A stretch of DNA of 64,000 bases from a virus (Duplodnaviria > Caudoviricetes), in the IMG/VR virus record IMGVR_UViG_3300038679_000357, positions 191,143-255,142 of that record, one strand, 5' to 3'. Position 1 is the first letter of the stretch. Every line of letters begins with the position of its first letter. Positions 18,835 through 57,603 of the stretch are shown piece after piece. A program made the position numbers and the translations under genes. Below the pieces are notes generated by a model. The model saw nothing but the letters and a program-made list of their open reading frames with translations, was not told where the DNA came from and made no database searches.

Positions 18835-19473
18835 TTAACAAATAGTTCTGCGGATCAACAACGTGGTTATGTTGGGTAATGCTTCATTCCATCGTTTGCG
18901 GATCAAATCTTCTACGTTCGACCAAGCAACAACAACTGCATCTGGTTTTGTCCTATTTATCCAATCCACAACCCCATCCCTGTATAAGTGGTACAAATGC
19001 TCGCCAGGTTTAAAATGACGCCACCCCATCAACTCGAAGAAACTAGCCACATCTGGTGTCTCCGGAAATGACAACAGACAATATTCCCACTTCATTAAAA
19101 ATAAGTCGTTGATATTTTCAAAGTGTTCAAGAACATCACTCAAAACAACCAGACCCCACGTCCTTGAATAGAGATCGTCCCTACTAATTACATTTTCTCC
19201 AACAACATCATATTCGCAGACCTCCTTGAATTTCCCGCGACAACAGTTGGCAAATATCCCATTCCCGCTTCCTACATCAACCATCGACATTTCTTTAATT
19301 TTCTCGTAAGGAATGTAAGCACACATAAACCCCATCCTAAGATAGGACATCTCTACATTAGTGCTCTGTTTTGCTTTATAAGAATCATCATAGACGATTC
19401 TATGTTGATCAACCTGCTTGATAAAACCATTTTCGTAGGCATACCCAGTAGGAAGATCTAACTCCGCTCTCAT
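18835..19473 (-). CDS. Class I SAM-dependent methyltransferase (glycan-modifying type)
   Basis: Motif I MVDVGSGNG and LVVLSDVLEHF motif. Confidence 0.8.
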   Translation of the reverse strand: MRAELDLPTGYAYENGFIKQVDQHRIVYDDSYKAKQSTNVEMSYLRMGFMCAYIPYEKIKEMSMVDVGSGNGIFANCCRGKFKEVCEYDVVGENVISRDDLYSRTWGLVVLSDVLEHFENINDLFLMKWEYCLLSFPETPDVASFFELMGWRHFKPGEHLYHLYRDGVVDWINRTKPDAVVVAWSNVEDLIRKRWNEALPNITTLLIRRTIC

Positions 19474-19475
19474 TT

Positions 19476-20588
19476 TTACCTAAACTTTTTTATCTCATTT
19501 TCCAGTGCCTTACGCCGCTTCTGCATGTATTCAATCTCCTTCACTGGAATGATATTATTTAACTCACTCAAAGATATACAGCAATCAAATTGCAGATATA
19601 AGAAGAAGGACTGAACAAGATCAAAAACCGACTCCCTTCTCTTCCTACTATTCTGGTCATATTTCCCATCCATTTGAGTAAGAAGTTTCGGTATATTGTC
19701 GTCTTTTAAATGTCGTTCTCCCTTTTCACTAGCCCAATCCCTTCCATGAAACGCCCTAACATGCTCATGGGTTTCAGAGAAAAACATGCACTTCGGTCTG
19801 TATCCACTATCTGTAATAATAGTTCCTTCGGGAAGAGACATTAACCTGGGAAGAAGTGATGTTCTATAAATAGAATAATGAACGTTCGTCCAAAGATGAG
19901 ACGCAAGAACCAACATATTTTCCTTGACGCCATTCTTCAACAAAACAAGGTTCATTGTTTCGAGATCGCCGGTAAACGGCCAGGTGTTATCCATTCCAAT
20001 TTTCAGACGATGATCAAACACATCAAGAAAAACATCACCATACTTCCTCGCATCAATAAACATCGGAGTGTTACAGACAAACTTACCGTCAACTGTATCG
20101 TTTTTGAAAAATGGAGTTCTTTTGTCTCCATCAACATAACATGGGCATGAACCCTTTGTTTGGTCGGTTTTGTAATACCGAACAACATTATCATTCACCG
20201 CGACAACAACCGAAGTATTAGCTGCGATCTCAAACAGTTCTCGAACACCGGAAACGAGAAAAATATCAGTGTCAATAAAGCAAATTGACTTGTATTGTGT
20301 TCCTACTTCAGCCATGATTTTGTAACGGTAATACTTTACCGTCATAACCTTACCGAGCTTGGAATCCTTTGGTAGCGTTACTATCGGTATGAAGCGCACC
20401 TTAGTTTCCATTCCGCAACATTTGTTTTCTATAAACGACCTATATTTCTCCGTAACACTTTCATCATGTATAACAACAACGTCAGCATATTTACCGCACC
20501 CAAACAGTTCAATACTATTTAATAGCGCGTTAAATAAATAGGTGTAATTATCGGTAAGACTTAGAAAAAACGCATGGTCTTTCACCAA
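19476..20588 (-). CDS. Glycosyltransferase, GT-A fold (GT8-like)
   Basis: N-terminal LSLTDNY..LFNALLNSI, KYYRY, DxD in CFIDTDIF, and GDLETMN motif. Confidence 0.7.
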   Translation of the reverse strand: MVKDHAFFLSLTDNYTYLFNALLNSIELFGCGKYADVVVIHDESVTEKYRSFIENKCCGMETKVRFIPIVTLPKDSKLGKVMTVKYYRYKIMAEVGTQYKSICFIDTDIFLVSGVRELFEIAANTSVVVAVNDNVVRYYKTDQTKGSCPCYVDGDKRTPFFKNDTVDGKFVCNTPMFIDARKYGDVFLDVFDHRLKIGMDNTWPFTGDLETMNLVLLKNGVKENMLVLASHLWTNVHYSIYRTSLLPRLMSLPEGTIITDSGYRPKCMFFSETHEHVRAFHGRDWASEKGERHLKDDNIPKLLTQMDGKYDQNSRKRRESVFDLVQSFFLYLQFDCCISLSELNNIIPVKEIEYMQKRRKALENEIKKFR

Positions 20589-20591
20589 AAA

Positions 20592-22280
20592 CTACTCCTT
20601 GTTATGTGTATGAGTCTTCGGACGACCAGGCTCATAGAACCGGTAATACATTTCGATCCTCCTAATAACCTCATCGGCAGTGATCATATCCATGCAAAAC
20701 GGTAACTCCACACCTTCTACTGAGTTGACAACGTATTCGCACATATTCTTACGATCCTTCTCATCATTATCACCAATAGGCTTAATTCTGCTCTTCCAAC
20801 ATCCTCCATTGTCACAGCAAGGAAGAGATCCGCACGTATGGATAAATTGATGTGAGGTATAAGCCTGCCAATGAGAAGGCTCTCGCCCGCCAGCGATAAC
20901 AACACATGGTCTATCTCGCCTACCATTACATGTACCCTGCTTAACTGGAACAGCGGCAGCTAATGTCATAGGATAACTACATGGGGTCAAAACACCAGAA
21001 GACGCCCACACCAATCGGATCAATTGACGGTCATCAGTTTTACCGACAAGATTTATTGTACCATTCAACTCTGGATGATTATGGGATTTATGTCCCATTT
21101 GAACGAACACAACTCTTCCAGCAAAATGATCAATAACTTTCTGATACCGTTCAACTGGCCACATTTTTGCAGTAAAATCATTTTTAAAACCAGCATTAAG
21201 AATCCAATAATGTACATCAGCGGCATAGCCAAACTGAGAAAACCAAGTATTTCTCTCTGTCCATCCCCATCCATCTTCGTTCGAGCCGATAACAATATGA
21301 CCTCGACATAACCTATTTCTTATCCTGACGCCAAGAAGGGTTTCAAAATGATCTGTGAACCCCTCAGAAAAGTGATATGGTCCCTGATTACTTTGATTAA
21401 TCAATGGATATTCAGCACTATACACCTCAACACCAGGTTCTTTTTCATCTAGCTTCGTGATATATGGATTCGATTCCCATATACCCATAGAATTGGTGCG
21501 AACGTCTGTAATAAACTTTCCGGGATGATTCAAATGAAGATCGCGAATTGCCGCAGTCATCATAACGATATCACCAGGCGCTTGAAAATTCTTAAAAATA
21601 ACCTTCCTTTTATCGGAGCCAGACGAAGATACGATAGAGGTAGATTCCACCACTTTTTTAGGAGTATCTACAGATGGGACGGCTTTCTCCCTCTGTTTTC
21701 TAAACTTTTCAAGAGCTGCCTTTCTTCTTTCCTCAATAGACGGCGGATGAGGAACTAAATCTGACGAACGTGTCTCAATAACTTTTTTTTCTTCAGGCTC
21801 TACTACCTTATTTTCAATCAAAGCCGGTTCAGTTGACTTATCTACAGTTGGAAGTTTATCCTTTTTAGGCGGAATATCAGGTATGTCAATTTCACGCTGT
21901 TCATAAACCTGCTGTTCTACGACGTTGGTAAACAAATTTATCCACGACTTTAGCGCCCCATGAGAAATCCACTCTCTTCCACCTATATACTTAGACACAA
22001 CTGACTTACGATCATCTGGAAGAGACTTAAACTCAGATACAAACAAGCTTAAAATAGAGGGGTATTTTGAATTAATATAACACGACGGACACCCTCCTGA
22101 TGGAACATTTTTTTCAGCCGTCGAGCACAACTCTTTTGTCTCAGTAAAATTTTCAGACACTATTTGGTCTGTGTCAATCTTTTTTATTATATCCAACGCT
22201 ACAGACGCTGGAGTAAGAATAGATTGAGGTTGCTTGCGGTTAACTAGCGTACTGATCTTTTTAAGCATATGAATCACCAT
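20592..22280 (-). CDS. GT9-family (ADP-heptose heptosyltransferase-like) glycosyltransferase with ~220-aa N-terminal extension and Cys-rich finger
   Basis: FQAPGDIVMMTAAIRDL, NLVGKTDDRQLIRLV, C-terminal C...CC...GCW...C...CMDMITADEV. Confidence 0.8.
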   Translation of the reverse strand: MVIHMLKKISTLVNRKQPQSILTPASVALDIIKKIDTDQIVSENFTETKELCSTAEKNVPSGGCPSCYINSKYPSILSLFVSEFKSLPDDRKSVVSKYIGGREWISHGALKSWINLFTNVVEQQVYEQREIDIPDIPPKKDKLPTVDKSTEPALIENKVVEPEEKKVIETRSSDLVPHPPSIEERRKAALEKFRKQREKAVPSVDTPKKVVESTSIVSSSGSDKRKVIFKNFQAPGDIVMMTAAIRDLHLNHPGKFITDVRTNSMGIWESNPYITKLDEKEPGVEVYSAEYPLINQSNQGPYHFSEGFTDHFETLLGVRIRNRLCRGHIVIGSNEDGWGWTERNTWFSQFGYAADVHYWILNAGFKNDFTAKMWPVERYQKVIDHFAGRVVFVQMGHKSHNHPELNGTINLVGKTDDRQLIRLVWASSGVLTPCSYPMTLAAAVPVKQGTCNGRRDRPCVVIAGGREPSHWQAYTSHQFIHTCGSLPCCDNGGCWKSRIKPIGDNDEKDRKNMCEYVVNSVEGVELPFCMDMITADEVIRRIEMYYRFYEPGRPKTHTHNKE

Positions 22281-22297
22281 TTTTTAGCAATGACAAC

Positions 22298-22309
22298 ATT
22301 ATACAACAC
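22298..22309 (-). promoter_or_regulatory. Extended -10-like motif GTGTTGTATAAT upstream of the glycosyltransferase block
   Basis: Perfect TATAAT preceded by TGTTG, about 18 nt upstream of the 22280 start. Confidence 0.55.
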
Positions 22310-22323
22310 CACAACAAAATTAA

Positions 22324-22782
22324 TCAAGGAGATGTAGAGGAGCTAGAGCTACTTGAAGAGCTAGAGCTACTTGAAGAGCTACTGAATGTCAACCAACACC
22401 TAATGTACTCTACGTTCAAATATTTTGACGAAGAGCTACTTTGGCTAGAAGATGATATGCTCGAACTGCTTTCACTGGAAGACGACATACTTGAGCTTGA
22501 TTTTGAAGACGAACTGGATCTTCCGTCAATTACAGCGCCAACTTGAACTTCTGAAATACGATTTTCAACATATTTACGGGCTCCAGAAAAATGAAGTTCA
22601 TCTTTAGCTCCATCAAGATCATTCCATGGTCCGTCTCCATTAAATCTAATATGATGAGTAATAAGCGAAGTGGGGTCGATTCCGATAGGATATCGGTCAG
22701 TCGGCAATGAAGATACCACCCCAGTTGCCGACACATCGATCAGCGGGGTAAAAACAAAAACATTCCATGGACCGACTATCAT
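22324..22782 (-). CDS. Small Ser-rich virion-type protein with two poly-Ser tracts
   Basis: 152 aa, about one third Ser, C-terminal S16; translation checked against the DNA. Confidence 0.6.
   Translation of the reverse strand: MIVGPWNVFVFTPLIDVSATGVVSSLPTDRYPIGIDPTSLITHHIRFNGDGPWNDLDGAKDELHFSGARKYVENRISEVQVGAVIDGRSSSSSKSSSSMSSSSESSSSISSSSQSSSSSKYLNVEYIRCWLTFSSSSSSSSSSSSSSSSTSP
22340..22375. repeat. 18-bp tandem duplication encoding Ser6
   Basis: GAGCTAGAGCTACTTGAA x2 (22340-22357, 22358-22375). Confidence 0.85.
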
Positions 22783-22822: not shown

Positions 22823-23818
22823 TTAACTTTCATCACTCTTCCGCTTTCTAGGCGACTCTCTCTTCGTATTCTCAGATAAATATTCAAGAATTGCCTCACC
22901 TTCGGTCTTCCCTTCGTCACGCTTTTTTGCAATTTCATCCCAATATTCAGACATCATATATTGCGAAGTTGAATATTCGGATTTTTTAATGAGCGACTCC
23001 CTTGAGGAAGAAGCTGTAGGCATCTTGTCTAAACTTGGTTGATTATTCCCTGGAGGTTGTGGGGTTGGAGGAACAATCAATCGTCCAGCTCTTGGTCCAT
23101 AAACTTCATAGAGATCATATCCAAGAATACCATTAACGTTAAAGGAGCGAAAATCTCCAAAAGCATGAGAACATTGTCCAACAATCAATGTTCTTCCGTT
23201 TTTTCCCGGCTTTAATTCATACGGAGAAAGAGGAAGCATATAATATGAAGAAACATTACCGTTTGGAAGTTCATAATCAAAGGCAATTGCCAAATTGTAC
23301 TTGTTGGCTATCGGAACAAGATCTATTACCGCCATATTGAGCATAAGATCAGGCATCGGATTTGACATTTGTTTCGGCGGAGATTGTTTGGGTGCAGGTT
23401 CAAACTTATCCTTAGATTCGTCTATTGGCAAAATGTCAGGAACATCATCCAGATACCCCTCATTCAGCACCTCATCATCTGACAATTGCGCCATTATCAA
23501 TCTCGAACCTGGTATGATCCCGTTTCTCGCAAAAAAACCAGAATTTGCTTCAACCGCATACAACACCGGTTCAGAACTGACAACTGATTTTACCGAATAG
23601 GGATGCAGAGGAAGAATCTCAGAAATTACCTTGTCTTCCCGAACGTAGGCAATGTCGAGTGGAATCCTTGTGTCTTTCATCCAAAACGAAAGCTTTCGAG
23701 GGGACGAGAAAGTGAAAACCATCCCGGAATTCATCCCAAGACAGTCACGATGCATCAACCCAAGTGACCTGGAATAGTCATTGGCGGCGGATTCAGCGTA
23801 TAATCTTACCCTTGCCAT
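22823..23818 (-). CDS. DUF192 (UPF0127) domain fused to a WYL-like domain
   Basis: GLMHR..L....GMVF.F......FWMKDTRIPLDIAY...AVEANSG (DUF192); then IAFDY...PYEL......LIVGQC.....FRSFNVNGI (WYL-like). Confidence 0.7.
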   Translation of the reverse strand: MARVRLYAESAANDYSRSLGLMHRDCLGMNSGMVFTFSSPRKLSFWMKDTRIPLDIAYVREDKVISEILPLHPYSVKSVVSSEPVLYAVEANSGFFARNGIIPGSRLIMAQLSDDEVLNEGYLDDVPDILPIDESKDKFEPAPKQSPPKQMSNPMPDLMLNMAVIDLVPIANKYNLAIAFDYELPNGNVSSYYMLPLSPYELKPGKNGRTLIVGQCSHAFGDFRSFNVNGILGYDLYEVYGPRAGRLIVPPTPQPPGNNQPSLDKMPTASSSRESLIKKSEYSTSQYMMSEYWDEIAKKRDEGKTEGEAILEYLSENTKRESPRKRKSDES

Positions 23819-24288
23819 TACGTCTTTTTCTTCCCCAAGGCAAAACGCATTTTGCCTATTTTTTCACTATCAGCCAAAATCTGTCCATATGGCTTGTGTA
23901 CGCGCTTGGACTCAAAGGCGTTTTCTTCATTCAAAACGATCGTTTTTATTACTTGTTTTGCACGCTGAGTAAACTTAACTTTTCTAGTATCTTCACCAAC
24001 AACTAATCCAAGCGTCTTCAGTCTCAATACATCACTATTCGACACGGTATCCGGAAGATCCAGCGTATCGCCCATCGACTCTCCGCTCTCTCTCCATACG
24101 CGAAACAAAAGAGAAGCCTCACTATCGCTTAACTTTATATTCTTTTTGGCGGCATCACTTTTTATAATGCCACCGAGAATAGATACATCAATTCCAGAAT
24201 GAATGTCTTCTGGGGAAGAGGGAGTCTCAGCTTGTTGACGTGCAGGATAACCAATTGGAATGATCGGTGATGGCATATTATTCCTCAA
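23818..24288 (-). CDS. Hypothetical protein (possible winged-helix segment)
   Basis: 156-aa coupled ORF; VLRLKTLGLV...VKFTQRAK. Confidence 0.6.
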   Translation of the reverse strand: MRNNMPSPIIPIGYPARQQAETPSSPEDIHSGIDVSILGGIIKSDAAKKNIKLSDSEASLLFRVWRESGESMGDTLDLPDTVSNSDVLRLKTLGLVVGEDTRKVKFTQRAKQVIKTIVLNEENAFESKRVHKPYGQILADSEKIGKMRFALGKKKT

Positions 24289-26641
24289 ACAATTCGGGAT
24301 TCTCGTCTTTCGCCTTTCTCCAGATATCTTTCAAGCCGGAAAGGTTATACTCCTCCAACATCGACTCTCCATTATCATACCTGGATATTTTCACGTACTC
24401 ATAAGCCAACCGCAACTGAGTAATATTTCCTGTGAAAACACTACCAGAATGTTCTAACATAGCCTCCATAAGCTCTGGAACGATCGTATATCCTCGAAGA
24501 GCCATAATAATAGCTCTAGTAATGATCAATGGATTTCTTGGGATGATTTCTCCAGGTTGGAATATAGTTTTCACAACCTTTGACTTGGCATCCTCAATCC
24601 CCATGCCAGTGATATCGTATATCTTCCCCTTAACAAAATCATAAAGTAGACTATTAGCCGTAAAATCACGAGCATATATGTCGTAGTTTAATGACGTGAC
24701 CTGCACTCCATTTTTTCTCATAAGGTCACGAACATCAACGGGAACAAAATTTCCGCGAAAATCCATTTTCATCCCGTCATAAGAAAAGCTCATCGTCATT
24801 GTTCTTAATAGAACACTCATATCAGTGGCATTTAACTCTTCGGCAAGAAGTCCACCCATTTTTAAACATTCTGTTGGATTTCCAGAGGTAAAATCGATAT
24901 CGTTAACTTCCCTATAATCACCACTGCCAATCATTGTCCTTGGCAATCCACCAACCGCATACACAGAGTTTATCCCGTGCTCGCGACAAACCGTCTTGGC
25001 AACCGTTAAAATATATGAGATCTGGTCAGAAATGCGTGCTGAAGTTCCCATAATCTCATCCACGGAATCTGAATCACCTATAATGATTGCCTTTTCCATA
25101 TTGATAATTGCTTTTTCATCTACATGAGGTGAAACAAGCCATATAGCATCATGATCTCCATGCTCAAACTTGTAAACCCTCATATCGGAACAAGCTCGCT
25201 CTATGGCGTCAGACATATACGAAAAGCAATACATTCTCACTGCCGGGCGCTTTCCAGACTTTACCTGAAACTTGTAGAAGCCTATTTTTCTCATGGACTC
25301 AAGGATGATGTTTTTTGTTTTATCATCAGCCTCTATTGCTGCAGCCTTCCTCCATGGACCGGTAACAATATCCTCACGATATAGAGAACTCCATGTCATT
25401 GGATTGTTATTACAGTAATCAATCATTGTAAAGTTCACGTCATACTGATATGACATACGACCAAAACGATCGGTTTGATAACTGACATTTTCCGGACGAT
25501 ATCGTTTATGCCAATAAGGATCTTCACCTTCTTTGTAGTCAATCCTATCTACAATATCTCGACCATCCATTACGCGAGGAATTGCCTCGTCAATTGCGTA
25601 AAACGGTCCACCAATATTTGGTCCACCAAGGTTAGAGTTGATTCCAGCAGTTTTTCGTACTGGTCGTATGATCGGACGAGGTCTGGCATTTTCCAATAAC
25701 TCCTGTAAGGTCATCCTCTTAACCTCGTCGTCGGTGTAATCGGCAGACAATCCATCAGCCACAGAAAAATCAGGCGGAAGAGGCTTATGATGGTTTTTTT
25801 GTAATATCGTCTCCATACTGTCATTAGGCTTCTTATCAACAGGGAAAAACATGTTGTCAAAATCACTAAAAGATTGCAGCATTGCCTCTGGAAGAACAGC
25901 GTCCAAAAATGGAACGATTTGAGCCTTCTTTATCGGCATCTTAGACGAAGCATTATATATTTCACTACCCATTTCAAATGGAATGCGACCTTGTGACTTT
26001 CTTGTGGAGTTCAGTTCGCCTATTTTTTCATTTGTCCACTTTTTTTGTGCCTGAATTGGAGCAGACTCGTCTTTTGCTCCAAGAGCGTGAACCGACTCAT
26101 GAACAATCGTAGATCCCAAATGAAGAGCCACGAGAAGGTCAAAATCAGATTGATCCAGTGGTTTATATTCACTTCCAGATATCTGCTTGGATAAATCCTG
26201 AAAATTCTTTTTCGCAATATCGAGAATCTTAGCAGCATTTATTCCGATAACAAGACCACCTTTCAAGTCAAGATTACCATACATCTTATCCATTTCGTCA
26301 CGAACCTGATCTGGGTTTTTATCATCAGACCAAGCATACAGGCTACCATTTTCATAGCGAACACTGTACCCCATCTTTTTAAGTTCAGCCTCAACAATTT
26401 TGACTTTAACGGATCGATCTATGTTTGGATCAAAAACTCCAAAAGCACCAGACTCAGAAGAATTATATATATAAGCAATATTGGTTAAATTTCCGCCAAA
26501 CGACGAACTTCTCACCATATCGAGAGCTGTCCCAGCCTGTGATAAAACAGAGGCAATTTCGCCAATATCAACTTTTGATGGCGAACCTATGTTTCCTTCG
26601 ATAGAAGGTACGATCCTATCTATTTCACCGGGCTGATACAT
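24278..26641 (-). CDS. Multidomain protein: HExxH (zincin-like) region plus C-terminal class II nucleotidyltransferase (CCA-adding/poly(A) polymerase family)
   Basis: HESVH at 26087-26101; VYAVGGLPRT...NDIDF, MDFR, ARDFTANSLLYD, KIYDITG.GIED, and RNPLIITRAI in the motif D position. Confidence 0.8.
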   Translation of the reverse strand: MYQPGEIDRIVPSIEGNIGSPSKVDIGEIASVLSQAGTALDMVRSSSFGGNLTNIAYIYNSSESGAFGVFDPNIDRSVKVKIVEAELKKMGYSVRYENGSLYAWSDDKNPDQVRDEMDKMYGNLDLKGGLVIGINAAKILDIAKKNFQDLSKQISGSEYKPLDQSDFDLLVALHLGSTIVHESVHALGAKDESAPIQAQKKWTNEKIGELNSTRKSQGRIPFEMGSEIYNASSKMPIKKAQIVPFLDAVLPEAMLQSFSDFDNMFFPVDKKPNDSMETILQKNHHKPLPPDFSVADGLSADYTDDEVKRMTLQELLENARPRPIIRPVRKTAGINSNLGGPNIGGPFYAIDEAIPRVMDGRDIVDRIDYKEGEDPYWHKRYRPENVSYQTDRFGRMSYQYDVNFTMIDYCNNNPMTWSSLYREDIVTGPWRKAAAIEADDKTKNIILESMRKIGFYKFQVKSGKRPAVRMYCFSYMSDAIERACSDMRVYKFEHGDHDAIWLVSPHVDEKAIINMEKAIIIGDSDSVDEIMGTSARISDQISYILTVAKTVCREHGINSVYAVGGLPRTMIGSGDYREVNDIDFTSGNPTECLKMGGLLAEELNATDMSVLLRTMTMSFSYDGMKMDFRGNFVPVDVRDLMRKNGVQVTSLNYDIYARDFTANSLLYDFVKGKIYDITGMGIEDAKSKVVKTIFQPGEIIPRNPLIITRAIIMALRGYTIVPELMEAMLEHSGSVFTGNITQLRLAYEYVKISRYDNGESMLEEYNLSGLKDIWRKAKDENPELFEE

Positions 26642-27230
26642 CTTTTACTCTTGTTGGAGTTTTAGTTGGTGTCGCAGAAGGAGATTCTTTTTCCTCATCT
26701 TTTTCTTTCTTTTTTACACCAAGAGAAAAATCATTATTGACGAGATTTGCTCCAGTAGGAACGTCAATATCAACGTATTCAATATCAGCAGCACTCCTGC
26801 CTTCATCACTAGTTTCTTGCGGAGGTTCGTTTAGCACCAAATCTTCATCATCTTCTTCAACCGTATATACATCTTTATGCGATTCAAGCCAATCACTTAA
26901 TACCTTGGTCTCCTTTACGTCAAGAGCAGAGATTGTTTCCCATCCAGACCCCAAAGATTTACCTACATTTTTATCAACCATTTCCGTAAAAAATGAAAAA
27001 TCTCCAAGCTCAGATATATGTTTTCCGTCTGGACTTTGATGATCAATTATCATTTTCTTTTCTTCTTTATCTACCAAAAACTTAGTAAGATATTCTACCG
27101 ATATGACAACGGTATTTCCACCAGAATCATCGCCGCCAGAATTATCGTCACTAGACTGGGAAATCTTGACTGGTCTTTTAACAGAAATTAGTTTCCACCT
27201 ATCATTTTCCAAAACTTCATACAGTCTCAT
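26625..27230 (-). CDS. Hypothetical acidic protein
   Basis: 201-aa ORF with overlapping start/stop. Confidence 0.65.
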   Translation of the reverse strand: MRLYEVLENDRWKLISVKRPVKISQSSDDNSGGDDSGGNTVVISVEYLTKFLVDKEEKKMIIDHQSPDGKHISELGDFSFFTEMVDKNVGKSLGSGWETISALDVKETKVLSDWLESHKDVYTVEEDDEDLVLNEPPQETSDEGRSAADIEYVDIDVPTGANLVNNDFSLGVKKKEKDEEKESPSATPTKTPTRVKDVSAR

Positions 27231-28248
27231 GTTTCATCTCCGTCATTAATTGATTCACATATTCAGAAGGAATAGCGGCATTTAACCCATAATTTCCAGT
27301 TGGCTGAACAATCATAGCTGCCACGCCAATAACAACGCCATCCAACACATCAATTATCGGACCGCCAGAACTACCAGGATATACCGCTAAATCGACAAAG
27401 AAATACGACCCCACACTGTCAGTGCCAACACTTCTTCCGATAGATGAGATCATCCCTCTTGAAACATTATTGTCATAGCCATACGGACTTCCTACGCATA
27501 AAATATCAGCACCAGTTTTCATCGCGGAAATCCCCTTCATACCAAGATAGGTGTGTTTTACTGTCTCACACGACATCAACGCCAGATCACGATCGTAATC
27601 TACTTCAATTGGTATAACACGATGACGTCGACCAGATTCAACAAGATAACATGAGACTGACTTAGGATCTTCCTGCCTGCGACTTATTACATGAGCACAT
27701 GTGACAAACAATGTTTCGTCTATAGCAAAACATGATCCGATTTCCATCTTACCATATTTCGACGATTCGCATTCCATTTTGAAGCAAGCCGACATAACGT
27801 CGGCAATCACCGGAATAATATCTTGTTTTTCTCCAGAAGAAGCCTGCCGATCAGGTTTCCTACCACGCCTAGTCATCATAATGTATCTTTTTTTAGACCA
27901 GTCTTTCATTACCTTTTCGTAATCTGAGTCGGGGTAAACATGTTCTTTGTGTTCTACATCAAGAACAATTATCTCAGTTGAATAATTAATGTCTCGATCA
28001 CCACTCTCGATTTCAGTTTCATTTCTGAAAAAACCACCGACAGCGTGAGACACTCCATCCGGCTCTACTCCAATGAATTTATGGTCTCCCCCCATATTGG
28101 AGTCAAAGGTGGTCCGTTCCTTATCCCCAGGTCCACCGCCATACCAAGGAGATTGTTTTGACTTGTCGGTGACAGGAGACAACCCACCATCGAACGGCAT
28201 TGTTGTTCGATGAGCTGCTATTTTATCGGTTATCTTCCTGATTTTCAT
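27217..28248 (-). CDS. Trypsin-like (S1/HtrA-type) serine protease with N-terminal extension, no PDZ
   Basis: Intact triad TCAHV / DRDLAL / YPGSSGGP. Confidence 0.85.
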   Translation of the reverse strand: MKIRKITDKIAAHRTTMPFDGGLSPVTDKSKQSPWYGGGPGDKERTTFDSNMGGDHKFIGVEPDGVSHAVGGFFRNETEIESGDRDINYSTEIIVLDVEHKEHVYPDSDYEKVMKDWSKKRYIMMTRRGRKPDRQASSGEKQDIIPVIADVMSACFKMECESSKYGKMEIGSCFAIDETLFVTCAHVISRRQEDPKSVSCYLVESGRRHRVIPIEVDYDRDLALMSCETVKHTYLGMKGISAMKTGADILCVGSPYGYDNNVSRGMISSIGRSVGTDSVGSYFFVDLAVYPGSSGGPIIDVLDGVVIGVAAMIVQPTGNYGLNAAIPSEYVNQLMTEMKHETV

Positions 28249-29052: not shown

Positions 29053-30834
29053 TTACATAGTCCTACCAACATTTGCCAAAACAGAAGATGGAAGAGAATT
29101 AACGATTCCATAACCGGACGCCATCCAAGTTGCTCCTGCGATACAGTCGGCTAAATCATCCGTCGGAAAATCAGATTTCACATCCTTATCTATCGACACC
29201 CCTCTTGTTGTCGACTTAACCTTTAAGTTAAGTAATTCTCCGTATATGTAATCATCGTGGTACATCCAAAACTCATCGGCATTCATTAGATCTTCAAGAT
29301 TTTTGTAAAAAGAGGCTTTTCCGCCTCTCGAAAACGAAAGTCTTGTTGCAATGATTCCCTTCCCCTTTAAAAACGCTATACTATGAACAGAATTCCATAA
29401 ATCGTAAGAAATTCTCATGGTCTTGAATTTTCGACAGATATCGTAAACTTCCGCATCAATTGCTTGAAAATCAAGCAACTGACCTCCTGGTTTCCACATC
29501 CGATGTGTAGCCAAATAACACCGATGCCTCTTTTCTCCACGACGATTGACATACTTCGTCTTACCTACAACTGCTAATGCATAGTTATCCCTGGTTGAGG
29601 CTGGATCGACATGGATATAATATTCAACATGCGGTTCTGCTCCTGTGCGCATGAACATAAACGTTTTTATGGCGTTAGAAACGGTATCTTTAGCAAAATA
29701 ATTTCTCTTTGATCCGCTCTTTCTCCACATCGACCCATATTCTGTATCGAACGACTCCTGGTCTCTTTTTCTTTCTTTTGTTAGAAACTCACAATCATAT
29801 GGAAGATCCTCGTTTATATCCCATGTAGCCAACCTAAAAGACAAGGTCTTGCGAAATTCATCATCCACACTGTTGCCATTTTCCCATATCTCATAAAAAA
29901 TACCACTAGGATAATTTACTGAAGAAATTTCAACTAGTCTACCGTCACCCTTAATCGTGAATTTTGCGATAGACGGAATGAGTGCGTTGTAAAAAGTTCT
30001 TCCAGAAACGACTGGGTTTTCATCGTAAAATGCCAACTCGTCAAACAAAATAGCAGCAGCAGAATAACCACGTAAGGTATCTGGATTGCTATGTCCGCAA
30101 ACCAATACAATTGATCCTTTTACAGAAATATTGGTGGTCGGATCAGATTTGTTCCGAATATCCGCATCAGTAAGAAGACGGATTTCAGTAGATAAGGCAT
30201 CGCCATCGATTCTACCGCGAAAAAACTTACATTTTCTCAATCGATTTTTGACCTGTGAGAATAAACGTTGTGACTGAGGTCCAGAATTAGCTACATTGAT
30301 AATGGCGATTTCTTCGTCATCAGGAATACCATAAAACTTATACGGATCACCAATCTTTATGAGCTTATATGCCTCATACGCAACAATAATCGAAGTCATA
30401 ATGGTTTTTGATGCGCGACGACCAAGCGCCAGGTGTAATTCATTGAATGTAAAATTCGAAGGTTCTCCTGGATTTTTACCATCCCTCATTTTTCTAAGTC
30501 GATGAATTACGTTATCAAGTTGTTTGTCGTGTAACCATTTTTCCTCTTCCGGCGACAATGTTACGTTTTCATTTCCCCTTGTCCCCATATAGAAGCACTT
30601 TAAAATAACTCGCTGCCCAAGAAAAAGGGGGAAATTATGTTGAGGAAGATCAAGAAAATCTGGATGGTTACAGAAGGTTATTATGTCAACTATATAATCA
30701 AACTGATCAACAGAAGTTTGCTCAACAGATAGTCCGGCATCAGCCCGGACCTTGTTCATCAATACTTCTAGTGGAGCAGAAACTTGTCCATCCTGATGTC
30801 TGTCAGAATGCGTGTTTTTCTTTCTTGGGGGCAT
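29053..30834 (-). CDS. terL: Terminase large subunit
   Basis: LALGRRASKT Walker A variant, ILFDELAF Walker B, VEISS coupling motif, RNase H-like YYIHVDPAS..DNYALAV and TDDLADCIAG. Confidence 0.9.
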   Translation of the reverse strand: MPPRKKNTHSDRHQDGQVSAPLEVLMNKVRADAGLSVEQTSVDQFDYIVDIITFCNHPDFLDLPQHNFPLFLGQRVILKCFYMGTRGNENVTLSPEEEKWLHDKQLDNVIHRLRKMRDGKNPGEPSNFTFNELHLALGRRASKTIMTSIIVAYEAYKLIKIGDPYKFYGIPDDEEIAIINVANSGPQSQRLFSQVKNRLRKCKFFRGRIDGDALSTEIRLLTDADIRNKSDPTTNISVKGSIVLVCGHSNPDTLRGYSAAAILFDELAFYDENPVVSGRTFYNALIPSIAKFTIKGDGRLVEISSVNYPSGIFYEIWENGNSVDDEFRKTLSFRLATWDINEDLPYDCEFLTKERKRDQESFDTEYGSMWRKSGSKRNYFAKDTVSNAIKTFMFMRTGAEPHVEYYIHVDPASTRDNYALAVVGKTKYVNRRGEKRHRCYLATHRMWKPGGQLLDFQAIDAEVYDICRKFKTMRISYDLWNSVHSIAFLKGKGIIATRLSFSRGGKASFYKNLEDLMNADEFWMYHDDYIYGELLNLKVKSTTRGVSIDKDVKSDFPTDDLADCIAGATWMASGYGIVNSLPSSVLANVGRTM

Positions 30835-55019: not shown

Positions 55020-55355
55020 CTATTCGATATCGCCTACCGGAATGTCTTTTTTGAACTTGTTTTCTGCTTCTTCGAGGTAGTCATAGTATTTTTCGTGTTC
55101 AGTAAGATGATCGAGAGAAATTTCTTCACGGATAGCTGGGTCATCGGAATGTTCTTTCTCGACTTCCATCCCTTTTTCTAGTTGCTCTTCAATTTGATCT
55201 GAAGAAACCTCATGTTTTTCAGCTATATCGTTCACATCCATTCCGTCGGCTTCTCCGCCGCGCAACTCGATCCAGTTATTTTCTTTACCGATCTGCTCCC
55301 ATTCTTTGCGAGTTATGGAGAGTGATGACGAATCCTTTGCGATAATAATTTTCAT
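55020..55355 (-). CDS. DUF5661-like protein with a conserved N-terminal leader
   Basis: GMEVEKEH.....EEISLDHLTEHEKYYDYL; leader MKIIIA...SITRKEWEQIGKENNW. Confidence 0.7.
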   Translation of the reverse strand: MKIIIAKDSSSLSITRKEWEQIGKENNWIELRGGEADGMDVNDIAEKHEVSSDQIEEQLEKGMEVEKEHSDDPAIREEISLDHLTEHEKYYDYLEEAENKFKKDIPVGDIE

Positions 55356-55449
55356 TTTTCACCCCTTTTTACTAATTATATGCCTTCTTCGTGTAGAAAA
55401 ATCCTTTTTTCGATGTATAATCAAGCAAACAAAAACCATAGAGAGAAAA

Positions 55450-57603
55450 ATGCATTCATTTAACGGTTTTTTATCATTTGAAAAGTCACCCCTTCCATAT
55501 GATGAAGGCGATAATGATCGTAATATTCCTATTATGGAGAGGATTCCAAAAAGAAAAGACAAATTAATGGAAATGGCGGCGTATCTAAAGACAAAATTTT
55601 TTGGCATTGATCAGCAAATAGATGAAGTCGTATCGATGATGTTTTCATGGTACACTGTCCCCGAAATAATGTTTAGACCAACTATTATTAATTTGTGGGG
55701 AGTGACAGGAGTTGGTAAAACTGATCTCGTTAGGAATATAGTTGATTTTCTTAATATGAATAATCATTATGCTGAGTTAAAGATGTCTAATCATAATGGA
55801 GATAGTGATTCTAGTTTTGAAAATAGACCATTCACGACGAAGCCGGGCGGATTGGAGCGAATGTTGAGAACTATTGATGATTATTGCGGAAGAGGAATTT
55901 TAATGCTGGATGAATTTCAAAGATTCCGCACTAAAACTGGCATGGGAGAAGAAGTAGATCATGGTTCGTATAGCGATATTTGGACATTGATGTCAGATGG
56001 TCGGTTTGCATCAAATCCTTCTGATGATTTCATAGAAGATTTATTTGATCGTCTTGAGAACCGCGATGAAGACGATCAAAATATCTTTACGTATAGTCAG
56101 AAAGACATGACTATAAAAAGATGGCGAGATAAATTTACTGAAACATGTCCATGGATCGACATTGATCGTTATTGTAGAGAGAAGAAATACGTGAATTCCA
56201 TGTATGCTGAATTCATTGTAGATGTTCTCCACGGCGAGAGTGGAGTCGATATACCTCATGATATTCATGATGTTAATGAAATAAATGATTTTTTAATTCA
56301 AGTGAGGTCAACGAAGGTATTTGAAAGAAAAAATGATTATTCAAAATTACTTATATTTGTTAGTGGAAACTTAGATGAGGCATTTCGATTTGCCACCTGT
56401 GTTGAGTCTTGTAATTATGACGCAGATAGCATTTACCGAATGTCTAAAAACGTAAACATTTTAGATATAAAAAAGGCGCTGTCAGAGCGTTTCTCTCCTG
56501 AACATATTTCAAGACTTGGAAACAATCACGTCATTTATCCGACATTGCATTCAGAAGCATTTCGCAAAATCATTTCAACGGAACTGAATAGAGTTTCAAA
56601 AATGATTTTTGAAAAATGCGGAATGATGTTTTTTTTCGATTACACTGTGGAAAATATGTTATATGAAAACGGTGTTTATCCAGTGCAGGGCGCGAGACCG
56701 GTGTTGACGACAATTGGATCATTTATCTCTATTGTCGTCCCAGACCTGGTTATTTCATTCGTGGAATTGGTTGGAGCACTGCCAGATAAAGACCTTATGG
56801 GCAGCCATGAAATATTGGTGTCGTATGAAAAAAATGTTATTACAGCCACATTAAATGGAATTAACAAAACATTCTCGTATGCCCCTCAATTATACGCATT
56901 AAAGAACGGCAAGAATGATTCTGACATTTTGTCCGTTATGTCCGTGCATGAAGCGGCACATTGCGTTTTGAGCGTTGTCGCCCAGGGGCAGTATCCTGAG
57001 TATATTTCAGTAACTCCAGATGGAAAGTCAGCCATTACGGTATGCGGTGGCAGCAGAGCATTTTTGAAGGCTAAAATAGCGCAGTGTGCTGTATCATTTG
57101 CAGGAGTAGCGGCTGAAAAAGCTGTTTTTGGTAAAAATTATGTAACCTCTGGCTCGGCGTCCGATATACATGATGCAACTTCAGTAGTGTGCGATGTCGT
57201 TAGAAGGTTTGGAATTATAGCTGGATTTCAAACGGCAGTAAAATCTGAATACAGCGATGATGCCGATGAGTTTGATACAGAGATATCAAAAACAAATGAA
57301 AAAGTGCAATCCATAATTAACATTATCTCAAGTTGGGTCGATTCAATAGTGCGAAACAATCTTACCCCTATAGTTATACTTGCTGCAGAAATAAAAAAAT
57401 CTGGCGGCATCGTACACCAAAAAAGAATAATTGAAGTTATTGGGGAATATGTCTCAGTTTACGTTAGAGAAAATAAATACAATACGTCATTCATGCTTGA
57501 TGAAGCTATTAAGTGCGTAAAGGGCGGCGAAGGGGATTTTATGAAGAAAGTCAATGAAATGAAAGATCCACTGGATGAGCTGGTGGGACAAATAATCGGT
57601 TAA
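55450..57603 (+). CDS. Clp/AAA_2-type ATPase fused to an M41 (FtsH-like) metallopeptidase domain, no TM segments
   Basis: WGVTGVGKT, LMLDEFQR, FSPEHISRLG, GARPV; then HEAAH, AGVAAEKAVFG, SGSASDI. Start 55450 is chosen because 55306 overlaps an opposite-strand gene and TGTATAAT lies at 55414-55421. Confidence 0.85.
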   Translation: MHSFNGFLSFEKSPLPYDEGDNDRNIPIMERIPKRKDKLMEMAAYLKTKFFGIDQQIDEVVSMMFSWYTVPEIMFRPTIINLWGVTGVGKTDLVRNIVDFLNMNNHYAELKMSNHNGDSDSSFENRPFTTKPGGLERMLRTIDDYCGRGILMLDEFQRFRTKTGMGEEVDHGSYSDIWTLMSDGRFASNPSDDFIEDLFDRLENRDEDDQNIFTYSQKDMTIKRWRDKFTETCPWIDIDRYCREKKYVNSMYAEFIVDVLHGESGVDIPHDIHDVNEINDFLIQVRSTKVFERKNDYSKLLIFVSGNLDEAFRFATCVESCNYDADSIYRMSKNVNILDIKKALSERFSPEHISRLGNNHVIYPTLHSEAFRKIISTELNRVSKMIFEKCGMMFFFDYTVENMLYENGVYPVQGARPVLTTIGSFISIVVPDLVISFVELVGALPDKDLMGSHEILVSYEKNVITATLNGINKTFSYAPQLYALKNGKNDSDILSVMSVHEAAHCVLSVVAQGQYPEYISVTPDGKSAITVCGGSRAFLKAKIAQCAVSFAGVAAEKAVFGKNYVTSGSASDIHDATSVVCDVVRRFGIIAGFQTAVKSEYSDDADEFDTEISKTNEKVQSIINIISSWVDSIVRNNLTPIVILAAEIKKSGGIVHQKRIIEVIGEYVSVYVRENKYNTSFMLDEAIKCVKGGEGDFMKKVNEMKDPLDELVGQIIG

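Follow-up and report, generated by a model that had tools for sequence, protein, structure and literature searches.

A gene in a 255-kb phage genome (IMG/VR record IMGVR_UViG_3300038679_000357) raises the question of what a nucleotidyltransferase (NTase) of the CCA-adding family does once the residues that template C and A addition are replaced. To our knowledge, every characterised class II nucleotidyltransferase, be it a CCA-, CC- or A-adding enzyme or a bacterial poly(A) polymerase (PAP), keeps the EDxxR template of motif D, and changed specificity in this class has so far come from engineering only. The product of the phage gene, P0001, reads RNPLI at this site. The gene lies at ~216 kb of the genome and was studied in a window of 64,000 nucleotides (positions 191,143 to 255,142 of the record).

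Domain Organization of P0001

P0001 is composed of a zincin-like domain, a linker, a small alpha/beta domain and a class II NTase head plus neck, in this order (Table 1). The sequence-only reading of the locus had considered residues 550-787 by themselves; the NTase is in fact the carboxyl-terminal module of a conserved huge-phage protein of zincin-linker-alpha/beta-NTase architecture. A decaying pseudogene is ruled out because the ORF is intact, the catalytic residues are invariant and the model reaches pLDDT 95.

Table 1. Features of the zincin-NTase locus (window positions; motif coordinates of P0001 verified by script; the close family comprises 25 homologues at 34-73% identity).
Feature	Position	Strand	Remarks
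DUF192 protein	22823..23818	minus	331 aa; conserved on the downstream side of the module
orf156, downstream gene	23818..24288	minus	likely true ATG at 24276, one base past the NTase-gene stop
Zincin-NTase gene (P0001)	24278-26641	minus	787 aa; intact ORF
NTase domain, residues 540-787	24281..25024	minus	head, neck and first body helices; lacks the rest of the body and the tail
Motif E-like RLAYEYVK	24389..24412	minus	R744, E748, K751 invariant; aligned to ERVGEEIEK of 9ns4
Motif D RNPLIITRA (for EDPLRxLRA)	24512..24538	minus	RNPLI at 24524-24538
Motif C region YDITGMGIEDAKSKVV	24572..24619	minus	D676, D684 invariant; G681 nearly so
Motif B DIYARDFTAN (canonical DxxRRDFTxN)	24653..24682	minus	R658, D659 kept
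MDFRG with D627	24752..24766	minus	aligns to the Glu of KLEF in the Aquifex A-adding enzyme
Catalytic DxD, NDIDF	24890..24904	minus	D581, D583: invariant throughout the close family
Motif A glycine loop GGLPRT (canonical GGxVRD)	24935..24952	minus	G564, G565, R568: invariant across the close family
Small alpha/beta domain, residues 441-539	25025..25321	minus	immediately ahead of the NTase
Linker, residues 232-440	25322..25948	minus	pLDDT mostly <50
Zincin-like domain, residues ~20-228	25958..26584	minus	pLDDT >90 (model)
HESVHALGAKDE: HExxH plus E192	26066..26101	minus	kept in 91/94 family members
orf201, upstream gene	26625..27230	minus	17-nt overlap with the NTase gene start
Trypsin-like serine protease (PF13365)	27217..28248	minus	343 aa; syntenic in relatives
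Terminase large subunit	29053..30834	minus	indicates a late or packaging block

The Nucleotidyltransferase Core

Residues 540-787 form the head and neck of a class II nucleotidyltransferase core of the CCA/poly(A)-polymerase type. PF01743 matches residues 561-690 (E 1.7e-9, above the Pfam cut-off) and is found in 73/73 family members; PF12627, the model of the PolyA_pol RNA-binding neck, matches in 24 of the 73. The AF2 model of the domain (pLDDT 95.1) aligns to 4wby, 3h39 and 1vfg with Z 19-20 over 209-217 residues, and the profile of the 73-sequence family matches the Aquifex A-adding enzyme, cca1 and cca2 with E 1e-29 to 1e-32. The Pfam match, the alignments to PDB sequences and the fold matches together uphold the assignment to the CCA family made from the sequence alone. 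The best NCBIfam match of P0001 is to a pcnB subfamily (E 7e-10, far below the cut-off of that model). The same head-and-neck fold is shared, with Z 17-20 over 209-231 aligned residues at 20-24% identity, by the class II tRNA nucleotidyltransferases of Aquifex aeolicus (A-adding; 4wby/1vfg), Thermotoga maritima (3h37-3h3a), Geobacillus stearothermophilus (1miv) and S. pombe (cca1/cca2, 9ns2/9ns4), and the bacterial PAP I (PcnB; 3aqk-3aqn) gives Z 15-16. No other gene with a PF01743 match is present in this genome that could code for a second, canonical CCA enzyme. In BFVD the closest matches were ordinary phage tRNA nucleotidyltransferases, and the best scores of an ESM Atlas feature search (0.75-0.76) are below the 0.9 mark for more than a lead.

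The Gad2-like and other head-only phage NTases (PF26128) are also phage-encoded, stripped-down CCA-enzyme-like cores devoid of tRNA-binding domains. However, the P0001 family matches PF01743 and not PF26128, which has no match in P0001 at E up to 1 and in 0/73 members at E up to 0.1. P0001 is, furthermore, fused to a zincin-like domain and encoded in a late block by the terminase, not in a replication module. Membership in the Gad2 or defence-type NTases is rejected, no PF26128 or PADLOC matches being found.

The head carries the elements of a pol-beta-type enzyme, namely the GGxxR loop (GGLPRT), the DxD (NDIDF) and a third carboxylate (MDFRG), for which D627 is the probable residue. The sequence-only reading had noted the retained NDIDF and RDFTAN and the unusual GGLPRT, all of which are confirmed by script. 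Across the close family the residues listed as invariant in Table 1 for motif A, DxD and motif E, together with D627, R658, D659 and R709, admit no change, and all three carboxylates are found in 30/30 cluster representatives of the query's clade (SH-aLRT 99). P0001 shares with the class II enzymes the GG..R loop, the DxD, the third carboxylate, the RD of motif B, motifs C and E, and the arginine of LRA; the motif C hinge (YDITGMGIEDAKSK) and motif E align to the matching segments of 9ns4. P0001 differs from them by lacking the final Asp of GGxVRD and the first Arg of RRD, since DIYARD takes the place of DxxRRD. The clade has N, S, A or G at this Arg position; over 141 sequences the counts are N 41, A 33, S 33, G 18 and D 5, with R in only 7 and another non-Arg residue in 4. 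The RRD of motif B serves ribose recognition (PMC2910056).

Motif D

The template of motif D is lost in P0001, with N703 in place of the Asp, I706 in place of the Arg and a variable residue at the Glu position, while P704 and R709 are kept. HMMER aligns RNPLIITRAIIMA of P0001 to EDPLRILRGIRFA of S. pombe cca2 (9ns4), to DDPLRVLRAVRFG of the Arabidopsis enzyme (9kma) and to EDPVRMLRAVRFA of E. coli PAP (3aqm), and RNPLI stands opposite EDPLR, DDPLR or EDPVR in all of the alignments, pairwise or by profile. The register is the same by pairwise HMMER, by profile HMMER and by structural alignment; a location of motif D elsewhere in the protein, the outcome that would have undone the sequence-only reading, is thus excluded. 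That reading had placed RNPLI exactly, and the change it described extends to the phage homologues: in the 25 members of the close family the Asp is replaced by N (23) or S (2) and the Arg by I, V, T or L, and P704 and R709 never vary. Among all domain sequences having a residue at the Asp position, 117/146 have N, and the Arg position is I, V, T, L, M or A in 98 of the 137 that also cover motif A. The main pairs are N..I (50), N..V (30), N..L and N..M (5 each), N..T and N..A (4 each), against only 11 sequences with the canonical D..R; EDPLR and DDPLR are confined to outgroup CCA-like proteins. Judging from these alignments, the substitution is kept family-wide, far beyond chance, in a large phage-only clade.

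Normal CCA or A addition by the NTase of P0001 would be unlikely by analogy with studied enzymes, because randomisation of three template positions of the human enzyme followed by selection for CCA repair yielded no substitutes for Asp or Arg (PMC11784652) and because the R215A mutation of E. coli PAP leads to random addition of A, C and U (PMC2532741). The latter mutant resembles the P0001 family in being devoid of the template Arg; PAP itself keeps EDPVR and has a carboxyl-terminal RNA-binding region, both absent from P0001. Engineered template changes alter specificity according to Cho et al. 2007, as cited in PMC3925840.

Relation to tRNA

The P0001 chain ends at residue 787, 85 residues past motif D. 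The structural alignment extends to ~283 of the 372 resolved residues in 4wby and to ~310 in 3h39, leaving a truncated body and no tail, the parts with which class II enzymes bind the acceptor/T arm of tRNA, and the NTase is placed behind ~540 residues of other domains. All of the 46 tRNA genes of the phage, clustered at genome positions 2-36 kb, encode CCA (46/46), and a need for CCA synthesis on phage tRNAs is rejected for this reason. The proposals of the sequence-only reading that tRNA is the target and that cut tRNA ends are repaired find no support in these features, nor in the location of the gene in a late block adjoining the terminase and away from RNA-repair genes. As far as its sequence tells, it is almost certain that the NTase of P0001 does not serve as a tRNA CCA enzyme.

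One of the phage tRNAs has a CTA anticodon, hinting at TAG recoding. Recoding finds no support: sense TAG barely extends ORFs and 34 long ORFs terminate at TAG.

Amino-Terminal and Middle Domains

The zincin-like domain has no Pfam, PHROG or NCBIfam matches, and Foldseek with the amino-terminal 539 residues found nothing significant in PDB and AFDB clusters; VIA-align with the same residues gave weak zincin and small alpha/beta matches only. The model of the domain resembles the YbeY endoribonuclease (1xm5/7y7o), Wss1/SprT (5xbn), the predicted zincin 3e11 and deuterolysin. The match to the first three folds is weak but recurrent (Z 6.0-7.3 over 103-129 residues, the range for deuterolysin too), and an invariant HExxH and a downstream Glu are features in common with them. 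In contrast to these metallohydrolases, the domain has no sequence-family match, and such Z values are common among unrelated folds. The HExxH..E motif is intact in 31 family members with a dead NTase, which are part of the 91/94 that keep it.

The linker has invariant N337, R380 and Y381 despite its low pLDDT, and S336, G339, G340, W377 and G394 are invariant in the close family. Residues 441-539 have their best fold match in 2guk (Z 8.9), the R3H, Jag and KhpB RNA-binding folds giving only Z 5.5-6.2. RNA binding by this predicted domain is a weak suggestion from matches that span Z 5.5-8.9, within the noise range.

Gene Neighbourhood

The terminase gene lies 2.4 kb upstream of the zincin-NTase gene. 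The ends of the genes in the zincin-NTase block overlap or abut, and the order protease, orf201, zincin-NTase gene, orf156, DUF192 recurs in three related loci (L002, L004, L008). A gene like orf156 follows the NTase gene in every examined related locus showing a downstream gene of similar size. At locus L006 a stand-alone NTase of 252 aa has an orf156 homologue (E 2e-13) as its next gene downstream, with DUF192 (E 5e-19) after it, and a separate WYL gene accompanies this DUF192 linkage; BLAST against the L006 WYL protein revealed no WYL domain in the carboxyl-terminal half of the 331-aa DUF192 protein. Fusions join the same partners: P0072 is a Trypsin_2 domain fused to zincin-middle-NTase, also with DUF192 downstream, and P0119 has an orf156-like segment fused to a zincin domain. 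The orf201 product weakly resembles the amino-terminal extension of 1100-aa family members (E 0.0016). The zincin-NTase gene is probably co-expressed with those of the protease, orf201, orf156 and the DUF192 protein. A complex prediction for the NTase domain with the orf156 product (score 0.01) gives no answer either way. PHROGs and Pfam identified no portal or major capsid genes nearby, and P0001 has no Pfam match to MuF or another head-targeting domain.

Family Spread and Catalytic State

The profile search retrieves 110 clusters (50% identity) at E <1e-30 and 647 at E <1e-10, counts that include zincin-only proteins and distant canonical enzymes. Relatives in cultured phages are not found, the only match being one of 28% identity to unannotated 735-kb uncultured phage records. 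At least one catalytic carboxylate is missing in 49 of the 137 related domains (36%), with the Asn-Pro and the zincin motif retained, and the tree calls for at least 7 changes of catalytic state. Since these domains keep both motifs without a complete catalytic set, NTase catalysis is, on the evidence of these relatives, not required for the conserved role of the whole protein, nor does the Asn have to read a base. The sequence-only reading had seen in this Asn a new templating residue, an idea weakened by its persistence: because Asn-Pro survives in 40/49 relatives devoid of catalytic carboxylates, the Asn may be structural, perhaps simply capping the neck helix. R709-A710 likewise persist whatever the catalytic state.

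Possible Functions

We favour, at about an even chance, the reading that the NTase of P0001 is active, has a relaxed or altered choice of NTPs and is no CCA enzyme, in a late protein of huge phages that is possibly virion cargo. The analysis establishes the fold, the motif register, the family-wide conservation, the domain architecture, the synteny and the fusions; catalytic activity, relaxed specificity, RNA as acceptor and packaging are what we infer. The core would probably still perform two-metal-ion nucleotidyl transfer. C and A would not be readable in the manner of CCA enzymes and PAP because Asn and Ile replace the templating Asp and Arg of motif D, and the missing tail and most of the body would leave no canonical hold on tRNA. 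A relaxed or different NTP choice would be expected, on a 3'-OH that is not canonically presented as a tRNA acceptor end. After processing by the protease, the protein would act as cargo in or together with the virion, not in tRNA maintenance; packaging may be proposed from the gene position and one protease fusion.

An enzyme of tRNA 3'-ends with a new specificity, adding U, G or mixed tails that repair phage or host tRNAs or inactivate those of the host, would agree with a catalytic core nearest to the tRNA nucleotidyltransferases, with the heavy investment of the phage in tRNAs (46 genes) and with the specificity changes obtained by engineering (Cho et al. 2007, as cited in PMC3925840), and the Asn could in principle hydrogen-bond the Watson-Crick edge of U or G. 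We consider it quite unlikely nonetheless: the canonical grip on tRNA is missing, all phage tRNAs encode CCA, the gene is far from the tRNA cluster and from RNA-repair genes, catalytically dead relatives keep the Asn, and a hydrophobic residue at the Arg position removes half of the template instead of reversing it. The acceptor of an active NTase could also be other than RNA, such as a protein, perhaps of the virion or the host, or a DNA end (for example that of the packaged genome), or the product could be a nucleotide sensed by DUF192/WYL-type neighbours. We know of no class II (PF01743) enzyme with a non-RNA acceptor, and the neck is conserved together with the RD pair of motif B and motifs C and E, all of which serve RNA 3'-end polymerisation in class II, the RNA-binding neck model still matching in 24/73 members. 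Relatives with the pol-beta fold do, however, include enzymes that nucleotidylate proteins or small molecules (ANT(2'') is matched with Z 8-9), the RRD motif, which recognises ribose, has lost its first Arg (PMC2910056), the terminase adjoins the gene, and a conserved linkage ties the NTase to DUF192 and, in L006, to a separate WYL gene; we regard a non-RNA acceptor as unlikely.

The frequent loss of carboxylates, with its repeated changes of state, the presence of HExxH..E also in members with a dead NTase and the persistence of Asn-Pro and R709-A710 regardless of catalysis would all suit a pseudoenzyme or structural module, that is, a scaffold, a binder of nucleotides or nucleic acids or a virion building block, the conserved activity being that of the HExxH domain. 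For P0001 itself this is improbable: the catalytic and NTP-binding residues are invariant in its clade (30 representatives, 34-73% identity), which is hard to explain without selection for catalysis. The most far-reaching version of an active NTase, which we rate as very improbable, would have the zincin-NTase loaded into the prohead, trimmed by the trypsin-like protease and co-ejected with the DNA to tail the 3' ends of tRNAs or other RNAs of the host with non-CCA nucleotides, halting host translation while the phage brings its 46 CCA-encoding tRNAs. If true, an RNA-tailing effector delivered in the virion would be new in kind, and the enzyme would be the first natural one of class II with a template for nucleotides other than C and A.

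Surveys of huge-phage genomes count PF01743 matches as "CCA-adding enzyme" in the translation toolkit (e.g. PMC7162821, PMC7824862). For the zincin-NTase family this label is very probably wrong. The protease, zincin-NTase, orf156 and DUF192 genes by the terminase form an uncharacterised late-gene module of uncultured huge phages. Their NTases are a natural and old clade that has lost both templating residues and kept those of the chemistry, and so offer a natural test of what sets nucleotide choice after removal of the template.

The final domain of P0001 and its nucleotide template

P0001 is a 787-residue protein of four parts, the last of which is a nucleotidyltransferase (NTase) domain at residues 540-787. 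Residues 561-690 match Pfam PF01743 (PolyA_pol head) above cut-off and the PHROGs matches are to 'tRNA nucleotidyltransferase' families, with scores to the NCBIfam pcnB and CCA models far under their cut-offs. When the AlphaFold2 model of the domain (mean pLDDT 95.1) is superposed on A-adding and CCA-adding class II enzymes, 209-231 residues align at Z 17-20; Foldseek with this model gives hits at E 5e-11. The domain is a class II head-and-neck core with the chemistry residues intact.

Motif D, the EDxxR template that selects CTP and ATP in class II CCA enzymes, reads RNPLI in P0001. phmmer against PDB sequences aligns RNPLIITRAIIMA of P0001 with EDPLRILRGIRFA of S. pombe cca2, DDPLRVLRAVRFG of the Arabidopsis enzyme and EDPVRMLRAVRFA of E. 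coli PAP. The same register is obtained with a 73-sequence family profile against the Aquifex A-adding enzyme, cca1 and cca2 (E 1e-29 to 1e-32). These alignments and the model superposition exclude a motif D elsewhere in the protein, and the rewritten motif lies exactly where the sequence-only reading had put it.

The change is conserved in phage homologues. The entire architecture is common to 25 proteins (770-823 residues, 34-73% identity) in which G564, G565, R568, N580, D581, D583, D627, R658, D659, P704, R709, R744, E748 and K751 are invariant. At the D-equivalent of motif D, 23 of them have N and two have S; the R-equivalent varies among I, V, T and L, and the E-equivalent is unconstrained. 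An exhaustive profile search gave 110 clusters (50% identity) at E <1e-30 and 647 at E <1e-10, counts that take in remote canonical enzymes as well as proteins with the zincin part only. The sequences retrieved in the searches contained 149 NTase domain hits, which were aligned. Of the 146 that have a residue at the D position, 117 carry N; among the 137 that also cover motif A, the R position holds I in 55, V in 30 and R in only 13. The first Arg of the motif B RRD is substituted in 134/141. In a maximum-likelihood tree rooted on canonical enzymes (EDPLR or DDPLR), N followed by a hydrophobic R-equivalent is the state of a clade of 105 rows, outside which stand-alone xDPxR proteins of ~250 residues branch as a separate group. 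The Asp/Arg template is lost family-wide, and this conservation and distribution identify an old, stable trait rather than a local accident.

Features of the P0001 gene and its surroundings
Feature	Position	Strand	Remark
P0001 gene	window 24278-26641	-	single ORF, 787 aa; NTase in 3' third
GGLPRT	window 24935-24952	-	position script-checked
NDIDF	window 24890-24904	-	position script-checked
MDFRG	window 24752-24766	-	position script-checked
DIYARDFTAN (motif B)	window 24653-24682	-	position script-checked
RNPLI (motif D)	window 24524-24538	-	position script-checked
RLAYEYVK	window 24389-24412	-	position script-checked
HExxH plus Glu motif, HESVHALGAKDE	window 26066-26101	-	N-terminal domain
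Linker, residues 232-440	window 25322-25948	-	low-confidence model (pLDDT <50), invariant residues
NTase, ~150-aa protein, DUF192 trio	window 22823-24288	-	255-kb phage
Same trio	L006:6001-8832		51-kb contig
P0072 gene	L009:159-3623		1154 aa
Poly-Ser/glycosyltransferase genes	window 18835-22782	-	directly downstream of module
FtsH-like gene	window 55306-57603	+	765 aa
tRNA gene region	G000 ~2231-36332		255-kb phage genome, outside window

Associated domains and gene neighbourhood

An AlphaFold2 model of residues 1-539 has a confident domain at 1-228 that bears HESVHALGAKDE. Its fold matches are weak and all zincin-like (YbeY, Wss1, predicted zincin 3e11, deuterolysin; Z 6.0-7.3). HExxH..E is retained in 91/94 family members, 31 of which have a dead NTase, and is better conserved family-wide than the NTase catalytic residues. 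The following ~200 residues, predicted to be disordered, carry the motifs AGINSN.GGP, DPYWH.RY.PEN, DRFGR and TGPWRK; this linker may fold on a partner or bear processing sites. Residues 441-539 form a small alpha/beta domain whose top fold match is 2guk (Z 8.9). Matches to R3H, Jag and KhpB folds reach just Z 5.5-6.2, too weak to call RNA binding.

The P0001 gene keeps its position within a conserved module of late genes adjoining terminase. The order terminase, two small genes, trypsin-like protease, orf201, P0001, orf156 and DUF192 is identical on three contigs with homologues at 36%, 54% and 72% identity, and the gene is tightly packed (17-nt overlap upstream, 1-nt gap downstream). Fusions link the same components. 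P0072 has a Trypsin_2 domain ahead of zincin, middle and NTase segments, the last without the DxD motif; after its gene come one encoding 270 aa and then DUF192. In P0119 a zincin domain is fused to a segment resembling orf156, and the N-terminal extension of long family forms weakly matches orf201 (E 0.0016). The 51-kb contig L006 encodes a stand-alone 252-aa NTase, an orf156 homologue (E 2e-13), two genes further on DUF192 (E 5e-19), and then a separate WYL-domain gene. P0001 could tentatively be viewed as virion cargo processed by a protease.

The genes immediately downstream of the module encode a 152-aa product rich in poly-Ser, a GT9-like protein, a GT8 glycosyltransferase and a methyltransferase, and next a 1470-aa Ig/NHL protein; the group resembles a set for glycosylating virion proteins. 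Elsewhere in the window, an FtsH-like protein combines an AAA ATPase and a Peptidase_M41 domain, which is unusual in a phage.

Substrate and nucleotide choice

The rewritten motif had suggested non-CCA tailing of tRNAs or other RNAs. The P0001 C-terminus lies 85 residues past motif D and structural alignments with the Aquifex A-adding enzyme stop at its residue ~283; therefore the tRNA-gripping tail and most of the body are absent. All 46 tRNA genes of the 255-kb record encode their own 3' CCA, and they lie in one 34-kb region (45/46 on the complementary strand, by ARAGORN) about 180 kb from the NTase gene. The genome has no second PF01743 gene and the flanks of the NTase gene have no RNA ligase or other RNA-repair gene. 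A tRNA target is thus unlikely, and a tRNA-tailing enzyme ranks as a rival reading, as does an NTase acting on a non-RNA acceptor. One phage tRNA has anticodon CTA, reading TAG, but the genome shows no evidence of TAG recoding: treating TAG as sense lengthens ORFs little, and 34 ORFs of at least 150 aa terminate in TAG.

Another rival reading takes the domain for a pseudoenzyme or a structural part. At least one catalytic carboxylate is lost in 49/137 related domains, chiefly ~1100-aa sister forms, and the tree requires at least seven changes of catalytic state. P0001 itself belongs to a 30-row subclade (SH-aLRT 99) with the three carboxylates in all members, and in this clade the domain is probably active.

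The proposal of a new templating specificity holds in that the Asp/Arg template is replaced. What replaces it fits less well: Asn-Pro persists in 40/49 carboxylate-deficient domains, so the Asn may be a structural helix N-cap rather than a base reader, and the hydrophobic R-equivalent indicates a template half deleted, not reversed. When the E, D and R positions in the human enzyme were randomised under CCA-repair selection, variants were recovered at E alone (PMC11784652). R215A abolishes the specificity of E. coli PAP, with random A, C and U addition (PMC2532741), and rational mutation of Asp and Arg allows other nucleotides to be added by enzymes of class II (Cho et al. 2007, as cited in PMC3925840). 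Given these precedents and the family's motif D, relaxed NTP choice without crisp new specificity would be the most economical expectation. P0001 is very probably neither a CCA-adding nor an A-adding enzyme; for NTP choice that is relaxed or altered, we consider the chances evenly balanced.

By descent the domain belongs with the class II tRNA nucleotidyltransferases and PAP, and it is predicted to work alike, but three of their hallmarks are missing or incomplete: EDxxR, RRD, and the full body with its tail. The family is not Gad2-like, since none of 73 members matches PF26128. Searches found neither cultured phages with such a protein nor, in the literature, a published description. The P0001 domain represents a class II enzyme that is template-less by nature, and hits of this kind in huge phages call for caution before they are labelled CCA-adding enzymes.
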